DNA of 64,000 bases from Escherichia phage EcF-vB. The notes beneath the pieces are model-generated. The model did no database searches. It had not been told where the DNA came from and saw only the letters and a list, made by a program, of their open reading frames with translations. Shown here piece after piece: positions 42,467 through 42,610 of the stretch. Positions within the stretch are counted from its first letter, which is position 1. Each line of letters opens with the position of its first letter. The position numbers and the translations under genes were made by a program. The DNA lies in sequence record PV683228.1. One strand, given 5' to 3'.

Positions 42467-42610
42467 AATTATCTTTGTAGATAAGCTACCCAGACTTGCT
42501 TAAGGTCTGTAGCGATGTGACTTTTTGGGTTTAAATCTAGAATTTACCCTTTCACCCTTTGTGGTCGCATACTCACAGGTAAGCTTAATAACTTATCTAC
42601 AAAGATAATT
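42467..42610 (-). other. 144-bp element bounded by perfect 19-bp terminal inverted repeats (candidate structured ncRNA or MITE-like element)
   Basis: AATTATCTTTGTAGATAAG at 42467-42485 is the exact reverse complement of 42592-42610; internal hairpins; mirrored at 62540-62683. Confidence 0.4.

Follow-up and report, generated by a model that had tools for sequence, protein, structure and literature searches.

A candidate structured RNA family next to tRNA-Lys in Felix O1-like phages

The 64,000-nucleotide (nt) sequence of Escherichia phage EcF-vB analyzed here (record PV683228.1; below, "the window") stems from a member of Felixounavirus, the group of Felix O1-like coliphages and Salmonella phages. 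Within its array of transfer RNA (tRNA) genes, positions 42467-42610 of the minus strand form a 144-nt structured element, which is conserved beyond this genus and in every lineage where it was found lies on the tRNA strand, immediately 5' of the gene for tRNA-Lys(UUU). With moderate confidence we regard the element as a member of a previously undescribed family of structured non-coding RNAs (ncRNAs), whose genes lie within the tRNA operons of Felix O1-like (Ounavirinae-type) phages and which would give rise to a stable RNA acting in trans.

Fold, conservation and strand of the element

Two features described in a first-pass annotation of the window proved to be present as reported. The sequence AATTATCTTTGTAGATAAG at 42467-42485 and the reverse complement of 42592-42610 are identical, so that the element is bounded by a perfect inverted repeat of 19 base pairs (bp), and the enclosed region contains the hairpins CAGAC-N9-GTCTG (42491-42509) and GGGT...ACCC, the latter around the palindrome TCTAGA (42527-42549). 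Perfect inverted-repeat seeds within 200 nt were formed by 12 overlapping 14-mers of the window, which were not assigned to individual repeats, versus none in five mononucleotide shuffles of the whole stretch. All 26 tRNA genes (38.4-43.6 kb) are located on the minus strand, which therefore is the strand on which to read the element, 5' to 3' from 42610 down to 42467. In this direction two Watson-Crick and three G-U pairs extend the repeat to a closing helix of 24 bp (P1), whereas on the plus strand the three G-U pairs turn into C-A mismatches. The 24-nt 5' strand of P1 as obtained by folding, AAUUAUCUUUGUAGAUAAGUUAUU (42587-42610), and its 3' strand GGUAGCUUAUCUACAAAGAUAAUU (42467-42490), which covaries with the 5' strand across lineages, enclose approximately 96 nt of RNA. 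These comprise a central hairpin, GGGU-AAAUUCUAGAUUUAA-ACCC (42527-42549), whose loop core AUUCUAGAUU is kept between Felixounavirus and Mooglevirus, and a conserved 3' hairpin, CAGAC-CUUAAGCAA-GUCUG (42491-42509), which adjoins the 3' strand of P1 without a spacer. Nucleotides 3-7 of the loop of this hairpin (UAAGC, 42498-42502, within 42496-42504) can form a pseudoknot with the sequence GCUUA (42580-42584), which starts 2 nt after P1. The folding energy of the element is -45.8 kcal/mol (z = -5.85 relative to 200 dinucleotide shuffles). Rfam searches of the window at the gathering threshold retrieved tRNAs and chance matches only, and no other family was found when the element and five related loci were searched at E<=10 or E<=1.

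The best DNA match to the region is Escherichia phage mio (98.4% identity), and 560 phage records match it overall. More distant homologues were reached by following the Ro-like protein encoded nearby (see below) to further contigs and by scanning Ounavirinae records. In Mooglevirus (Citrobacter phages Michonne and Mordin, Shigella phage Sf19) the entire spacer between tRNA-Asp and tRNA-Lys is syntenic, and the interior of the element has diverged by about 40% while P1 is preserved: pairing survives five double substitutions, among them U-A to C-G (twice), G-C to C-G and U-G to G-C, and in addition a paired 1-nt deletion. The 3' hairpin differs between the two genera by one double substitution (G-C to A-U). 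Further homologues are present on the Logan contigs L063 (8279-8422) and L064 (9248-9397), in Yersinia phage P778 (L065, 8493-8658), on contig L066 (8017-8157), and in the Pectobacterium phages Arno18 (L004, 3862-4030) and Wc4-1 (L059, 3129-3295). A covariance model built from the element (R1) is narrow; it retrieved Arno18 and Wc4-1 only at E values of 0.1-0.7 and missed the homologues of L064, P778 and L066, which were located by a script that combined motif and pairing. Additional pattern scans yielded little. In IMG/VR, a search for the loop together with the tRNA-Lys anticodon loop gave real matches in Felixounavirus and Mooglevirus only, the other recurring matches being in contigs lacking tRNAs, and among the matches listed in a metagenome scan for pseudoknot, loop and anticodon loop, one was real and the rest were chance.

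In all seven lineages the element lies directly 5' of tRNA-Lys(UUU), at a distance of 0-24 nt, and shares the same architecture. The closing helix P1 has 20-27 bp in each of them and a different sequence in each. Ungapped runs with at most one mismatch extend over 22-24 bp in Felixounavirus, Mooglevirus, L063 and P778 and over 11-13 bp in L064, L066 and Arno18, where minimum free energy folds lengthen P1 across small bulges to approximately 20-27 bp. The 3'-most hairpin (7/7 lineages) consists of 5-6 bp and a 9-nt loop, CYUWWGCAA, and adjoins the 3' strand of P1, while the internal hairpins between the P1 strands are lineage-specific. The pseudoknot between GCUWA, located 0-4 nt past the 5' strand of P1, and loop nucleotides 3-7 was recognized in six of the seven lineages: as GCUUA:UAAGC in Felixounavirus, L063 and Arno18, in the last of these extended to the 7-bp UUGCUUA:UAAGCAA, as GCUAA:UUAGC in Mooglevirus and P778, and in L064 as GCUUC with one mismatch or, in a register of its own, as UGCUU paired with AAGCA. 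By shuffling, a pseudoknot match at this place is expected by chance in about 2% of cases per lineage. A hand-assembled core alignment of the seven lineages was restricted to the pseudoknot, the hairpin and the 12 innermost base pairs of P1. In it, 94.3% of the cells pair, compared to 30-40% when the partners are slid against each other; both sides have changed in 16 of the 22 pairs, and none of 500 shuffles reached the observed values. A full-length MAFFT alignment of all lineages was out of register and was not used.

The helices contain about 20 G-U cells, for which the opposite strand would give C-A mismatches, and the sense strand reaches 169 bits with model R1, the antisense strand 52 bits. 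This asymmetry and the many G-U pairs assign the structure to RNA with the polarity of the tRNAs. As its arms are perfectly palindromic, the element could also extrude a cruciform and might be a DNA-level signal, such as a cruciform, an origin, a packaging site or a recombination site. This is very improbable, however, considering that the helices are kept through G-U pairs, which only RNA of the tRNA sense can form, and given the strong strand asymmetry of the model score. The same very low probability applies to a gene for a small protein. Some GenBank records list a "hypothetical protein" on the opposite strand of the element, but the open reading frames (ORFs) across the element do not exceed 33 amino acids and none is common to the elements of Felixounavirus and Mooglevirus. 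In wV8 (gp048), AYO145A (orf047) and other phages this annotation covers both the element and the adjacent RNA described below (about 42470-42730 of the window, plus strand). No such ORF is conserved in the window or in Mooglevirus, and it probably is a spurious gene call.

As an alternative, the first-pass annotation had considered a miniature inverted-repeat mobile element. The perfect 19-bp terminal inverted repeats, small size and absence of ORFs would fit such a transposable element (MITE) that had entered the tRNA array. MITEs indeed resemble the element in having terminal inverted repeats, a length of about 150 bp and no coding capacity. The element differs from them in its copy number, its flanks, its synteny and the way its arms evolve. 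In blastn searches the element matched 191 places in 189 phage records, essentially a single one per record and all with at least 94% identity, whereas no match was obtained among 5,426 complete genomes of Escherichia coli or among 72,556 plasmids; within the window, R1 recognized two mirror copies only. The flanking sequences ...CGGTCTGGT / element / TAATGGAAG... (GGT / element / TAA) contain no target-site duplication. Moreover, the site is syntenic in all seven lineages, and the supposed terminal repeats diverge by compensation and not in a neutral fashion. Being present once per phage genome at a fixed site, without copies in hosts or plasmids and without target-site duplication, the element is not a MITE; this explanation has practically no probability left.

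The second of the two mirror copies (62540-62683, plus strand) is identical to the reverse complement of 42467-42610, as the first-pass annotation had pointed out, but it offers no independent evidence of conservation because the window is a near-palindrome and reference genomes of Felixounavirus contain the region only once. The arm from 51344 to 41150 is mirrored by 54150-64000 around a unique center (51345-54149). The stretch 42934-43995, which comprises tRNA-Asp to tRNA-Pro, two of the Y-type modules and the promoter-like sites treated below, and the 3' end of the Ro-like ORF, is missing from the second arm. The two arms also differ in tRNA-Lys, which has 75 nt and 44 bits in the first arm versus 76 nt and 54 bits in the second. 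Probably the genome is defective, or the palindrome arose in assembly, by inverted duplication or as a chimera.

A spacer in Erwinia phage phiEa21-4 (L149, 22312-22489) deserves mention beside these homologues. Its 178 nt between tRNA-Ala and tRNA-Met form a long closing helix (AAACUUUAAUGGUCUGG…/…CCAGAGCCAUUAAAGUUU) that encloses several hairpins, and the 5' strand resembles P1 of Arno18 and L066; the CYUWWGCAA hairpin is absent. Neither a canonical element nor a Ro-like gene was detected in the first 45 kb of this phage. The spacer may be a distant relative of the family.

The Ro60-like gene and neighboring Y-type RNAs

The first-pass annotation had likened the long terminal stem around internal stem-loops to Y RNAs, the partners of Ro60, and had noted a Ro60-like gene at a distance of 1.1 kb. 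This gene (43747-45162, minus strand) is 1,137 nt away from the element and on the same strand. It encodes 471 amino acids with the domains DUF2828 and DUF7788 and belongs to PHROG 850 ("RNA-binding protein"). The ORF has no sequence match to Ro60 among the PDB structures, but its AlphaFold model (predicted local distance difference test score, 86) retrieved Ro60 or TROVE domain structures as all ten of the best Foldseek matches in the PDB (E about 1e-8, template modeling scores 0.5-0.67), including the Ro60 of Thermus phage phiLo. The designation "Ro60-like" is thus valid at the level of the fold. A Ro60 fold has also been reported for gp130 of the Felixounavirus member Bas63, which counters the "ppl" defense system (preprint, PMC11482910). 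Regarding RNA partners, the authors of that preprint only speculate that "some tRNA genes are possibly Y RNAs" (PMC11482910).

The element occupies the gap between tRNA-Lys(UUU) and an upstream structured RNA, and it is this upstream neighbor (42612-42742, minus strand) that resembles a known Y RNA. The 3' end of the neighbor adjoins the element. Inside its outer stem, AGACCGU/ACGGUCU, a T arm (GAAGGUUCGAUUCCUUC) is followed by an acceptor-like stem of 7 bp, which is closed, and by a D arm (GUGUAAUGGUAGCAC). The tRNA-like domain of YrlA has the order V, T arm, acceptor stem and D arm (PMC4201824), and the neighbor matches this permuted order. RNAalifold, applied to 14 variants, recovered the T arm, the 7-bp acceptor-like stem with six covarying pairs, and the D arm. 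Consistently, a circularly permuted construct of this YrlA-like RNA, whose anticodon arm was artificial, was called a tRNA by ARAGORN, whereas the native order was not. Three shorter Y-type modules follow further upstream on the minus strand. One is located at 42755-42829 and has the stem CAGAAGACC...CAGCAA / GGUCUGG but no tRNA-like domain; the others lie between tRNA-Met and tRNA-Asn (43186-43245) and between tRNA-Glu and tRNA-Met (43340-43412). All four modules have in common the stem CAGAAGACC-N6-CAGCAA / GGUCUGG, which differs from the published Ro-binding motif GNCGAAN0-1G of bacterial Y RNAs.

A covariance model of the YrlA-like RNA (R2) was searched in 1.1 Mb of loci and gave 56 matches at E<=1, of which 55 were on the strand of the Ro-like gene. 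Many of them adjoin this gene, in phages that are just about 40% identical. In the window, R2 scored the modules at 43340-43412 and 43186-43245 with 38.9 and 40.5 bits, respectively, and did not report the one at 42755-42829, whose counterpart in L063 was matched. In Arno18, Wc4-1 and phiEa21-4, which lack the Ro-like gene (genome-wide, at the syntenic position and in the first 45 kb, respectively), R2 with filters off found nothing above 20 bits, and the weak matches mostly were real tRNAs. The Y-type modules thus track the presence of the Ro-like gene across genomes, and the four modules are probably the Y RNAs of the DUF2828 Ro-like protein family. An earlier survey limited its search for Y RNAs to genomes with TROVE annotations (Chen et al., 2014; PMC4201824), and nothing relevant was found in the literature on phage DUF2828, on phage Ro-like/Y RNA or on Felixounavirus RNA sequencing.

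A few further structures were observed in this region. Just downstream of the Ro-like gene of L066 (6501-6563), the Rfam family "skipping-rope" gave a sub-threshold match (29.1 bits; gathering threshold, 36.7). In the window, two hairpins, GAGAGGGCUAUUUAGCCCCUC and CCUUAAAGAGUUCUUACGAGUAUUCUUUAAAGG, are located right after tRNA-Asp (about 42835-42895, minus strand). They are nearly invariant in Mooglevirus, recognizable in L063 and not followed by a U-tract.

Against this background, the element itself might be considered a Y RNA or a third, Y-RNA-like partner of the Ro60-like protein. The protein would then bind to the P1 stem, and the pseudoknotted core would serve as a module for binding an effector. 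The location 1.1 kb from a gene with a Ro60-folding model on the same strand would fit, as would the direct contact with the YrlA-like RNA. In addition, one half of the loop, AGCAA(G), is invariant and matches the CAGCA(A) that is invariant in all Y-type modules, and the 5' strand of P1 in L064, AAUUUGCAAAGAAUCUUUCAGCAU, is identical in about 24 of 27 positions to the 5' strand of the YrlA-like RNA of this phage. The general layout is also that of Y RNAs, in which the 5' and 3' ends form a stem and further modules are internal (PMC4201824). Known prokaryotic and phage examples, YrlA and YrlB (Chen et al., 2014; PMC4201824) and Yrl1 and Yrl2 of Thermus phage phiLo (PMC12135203), likewise are encoded beside a Ro60-type gene on the same strand, measure 80-170 nt and have a long end-pairing stem around internal modules, and it is the neighbor at 42612-42742 that has the V-T-AS-D order of the YrlA tRNA-like domain. 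The element, however, contains no tRNA-like domain and neither of the motifs GNCGAAN0-1G and GGUCCGA, and the P1 helices of Felixounavirus, Mooglevirus and Arno18 lack the phage Y-type motif CAGAAGACC.../GGUCUGG. Its P1 is a perfect, bulge-free helix of 24 bp, whereas the Ro-binding helix is bulged. Rfam Y_RNA models did not match 42467-42610 even at E<=10, and R2 never matched the element but only its neighbors. The genomic distribution also differs: Arno18 and Wc4-1 keep the element without a Ro-like gene or Y-type modules (no Ro-like homologue genome-wide in Arno18, best tblastn E 0.077; no Ro-like gene at the syntenic position in Wc4-1), and conversely the element was not found in 75 other diverse loci that encode the Ro-like protein. 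Furthermore, gp130 alone transfers the anti-ppl activity to T7 without these RNAs (preprint, PMC11482910). Since the RNAs that track the Ro-like gene are the immediate neighbors of the element, the element is not the Y RNA itself, and the role of a Ro-binding Y RNA fits the four neighboring modules instead. The first-pass annotation thus recognized a fitting architecture next to a fitting gene but assigned it to the wrong 144 nt, and we consider a Y RNA or third-partner role of the element rather unlikely. The near-identity in L064 of the closing helix of the element (9248-9397) and the outer stem of the YrlA-like RNA (8940-9098) suggests that the element descends from a Y-type module or that gene conversion took place between adjacent RNA modules.

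Possible biogenesis, function and known counterparts

If the element acts as an ncRNA, its biogenesis can be outlined on the basis of established tRNA processing. Promoters immediately downstream of the Ro-like gene would drive transcription of the element together with the tRNAs. Two matches to the sigma-70 consensus upstream of tRNA-Pro (43608-43728, minus strand) are plausible start sites of a joint tRNA/ncRNA transcript, and no terminator-like site was seen on the minus strand between them and tRNA-Lys. The gene of tRNA-Lys(UUU), the invariant downstream neighbor in the seven lineages, starts 4 nt after the element (42388-42462, minus strand), and cleavage by RNase P at the 5' end of tRNA-Lys would yield the 3' end of the element a few nucleotides beyond P1. 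The 5' end might be formed by 3' processing of the preceding tRNA-like RNA or by RNase III cutting the long P1 helix. The loop-junction pseudoknot would then clamp the core shut, and the product would be an RNA of about 140-170 nt, which should be stable because its ends are fully paired and its core is locked by the pseudoknot. Such an RNA could act in trans, most simply by binding a protein. The conserved loop sequence and the pseudoknot argue that the excised RNA itself is functional and not a mere cleavage site.

A more modest role would be that of a cis-acting processing signal or leader, in which the long duplex serves as an RNase III site that separates the upstream RNAs from tRNA-Lys and the excised RNA has no function. 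RNase III needs roughly two helical turns of duplex, and long near-perfect duplexes flank RNAs that this enzyme excises from polycistronic precursors, as in rRNA operons and the early mRNA of T7. P1 resembles such processing stems as a long, near-continuous duplex of about 20 bp or more that flanks the enclosed RNA, and with 20-27 bp in every lineage it reaches at least the required length. The fixed site directly 5' of a tRNA would also agree with a cis signal, as would the dispensability of the element in Salmonella phage SP116 (see below). Yet a pure cleavage site requires neither a conserved 9-nt loop nor a covarying pseudoknot or conserved interior motifs, and the 25 other tRNAs of the operon get by with spacers of 2-10 nt. 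As a putative RNase III substrate, P1 differs from the known processing stems in that the RNA it encloses has only about 96 nt and a conserved pseudoknotted core of its own. A role restricted to processing in cis therefore appears unlikely.

Known precedents for non-tRNA genes in a phage tRNA cluster are "species 1" and "species 2" of T4 (rnaC and rnaD; 139 and 119 nt), which are encoded on the tRNA strand, are annotated as small stable RNAs of unknown function, and are freed from the tRNA precursor by the tRNA-processing machinery. However, rnaC has a tRNA-like fold with the T arm CCGGGUUCGAAUCCCGG, whereas the element lacks any T-arm-like hairpin and differs from both T4 RNAs by its 24-bp closing helix, its loop-junction pseudoknot and the absence of sequence similarity. 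Homology to the T4 RNAs, which are tRNA-like and dissimilar, was therefore rejected. RNAs that do recall rnaC were observed elsewhere in the tRNA regions of Ounavirinae-like phages. These unannotated tRNA-like RNAs (L004, that is Arno18, 3741-3856; L061, 32295-32770; L064, 7606-7703) have a normal acceptor stem and T arm and carry long insertions that expand the other arms; the one in L064 matches the Rfam tRNA model with 39 bits over 98 nt. In overall shape, the element can also be compared to adenovirus virus-associated (VA) RNA and the Epstein-Barr virus-encoded small RNAs (EBERs), which are highly structured viral RNAs that serve as protein-binding decoys. They measure about 160 nt and likewise combine a long terminal stem with a compact domain at their center. 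The likeness is one of analogy only: VA RNA and EBERs are eukaryotic Pol III transcripts that target PKR, La and L22, and we know of no bacterial counterpart of this pathway.

A more specific, though decidedly unlikely, proposal is that the element belongs to a new class of phage RNAs that is functionally tied to tRNA-Lys(UUU) or, alternatively, is the effector-binding third RNA of a Ro-like/Y-RNA ribonucleoprotein. tRNA-Lys(UUU) is the target of anticodon nucleases such as PrrC and PARIS. The element could act as a decoy with a pseudoknot, or as a licensing element by which the phage protects its own tRNA-Lys or times the supply of it. As a third RNA, it could help the phage ribonucleoprotein to counter host defense; in this case the AGCAA motif and the Y-type closing stem of one lineage would reflect a common protein partner. 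Mimicry of the tRNA-Lys anticodon arm by the 3' hairpin was considered separately and discarded: the stems are alike in Felixounavirus, but the hairpin does not covary with tRNA-Lys in Arno18.

Several points weigh against a stable, trans-acting ncRNA. Expression, ends and stability of the element RNA are all deduced from sequence, and its action in trans through a partner is likewise inferred. L066 has no pseudoknot partner at the expected place. The core alignment is biased towards structure because the segments joined in it by hand were those on either side of the conserved hairpin. The closing helix of L064 is similar to a Y-type stem, which keeps a connection to Ro possible. Finally, a natural deletion in SP116 (L005, 2585-2820) fuses the YrlA-like RNA with tRNA-Lys at their T arms and thereby removes the remainder of the YrlA-like RNA, the 144-nt element and most of tRNA-Lys. 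As this viable isolate lost the element through recombination between T arms, the element is dispensable in laboratory culture.

Significance

Felix O1-like phages are classic typing and therapy phages, and yet this conserved element is unannotated in their genomes. We class it as a new RNA family within the small structured RNAs that are embedded in phage tRNA operons. With exact coordinates and designs for compensatory mutations at hand, both the function of the element and the assignment of the Y RNAs have become directly testable. The same 450-nt spacer that harbors the element also provides Y RNA candidates for an anti-defense Ro60-like protein (gp130 in Bas63). To the few non-tRNA RNAs in phage tRNA arrays, the element adds a fold that is supported by covariation and combines a long clamp helix with a loop-junction pseudoknot.

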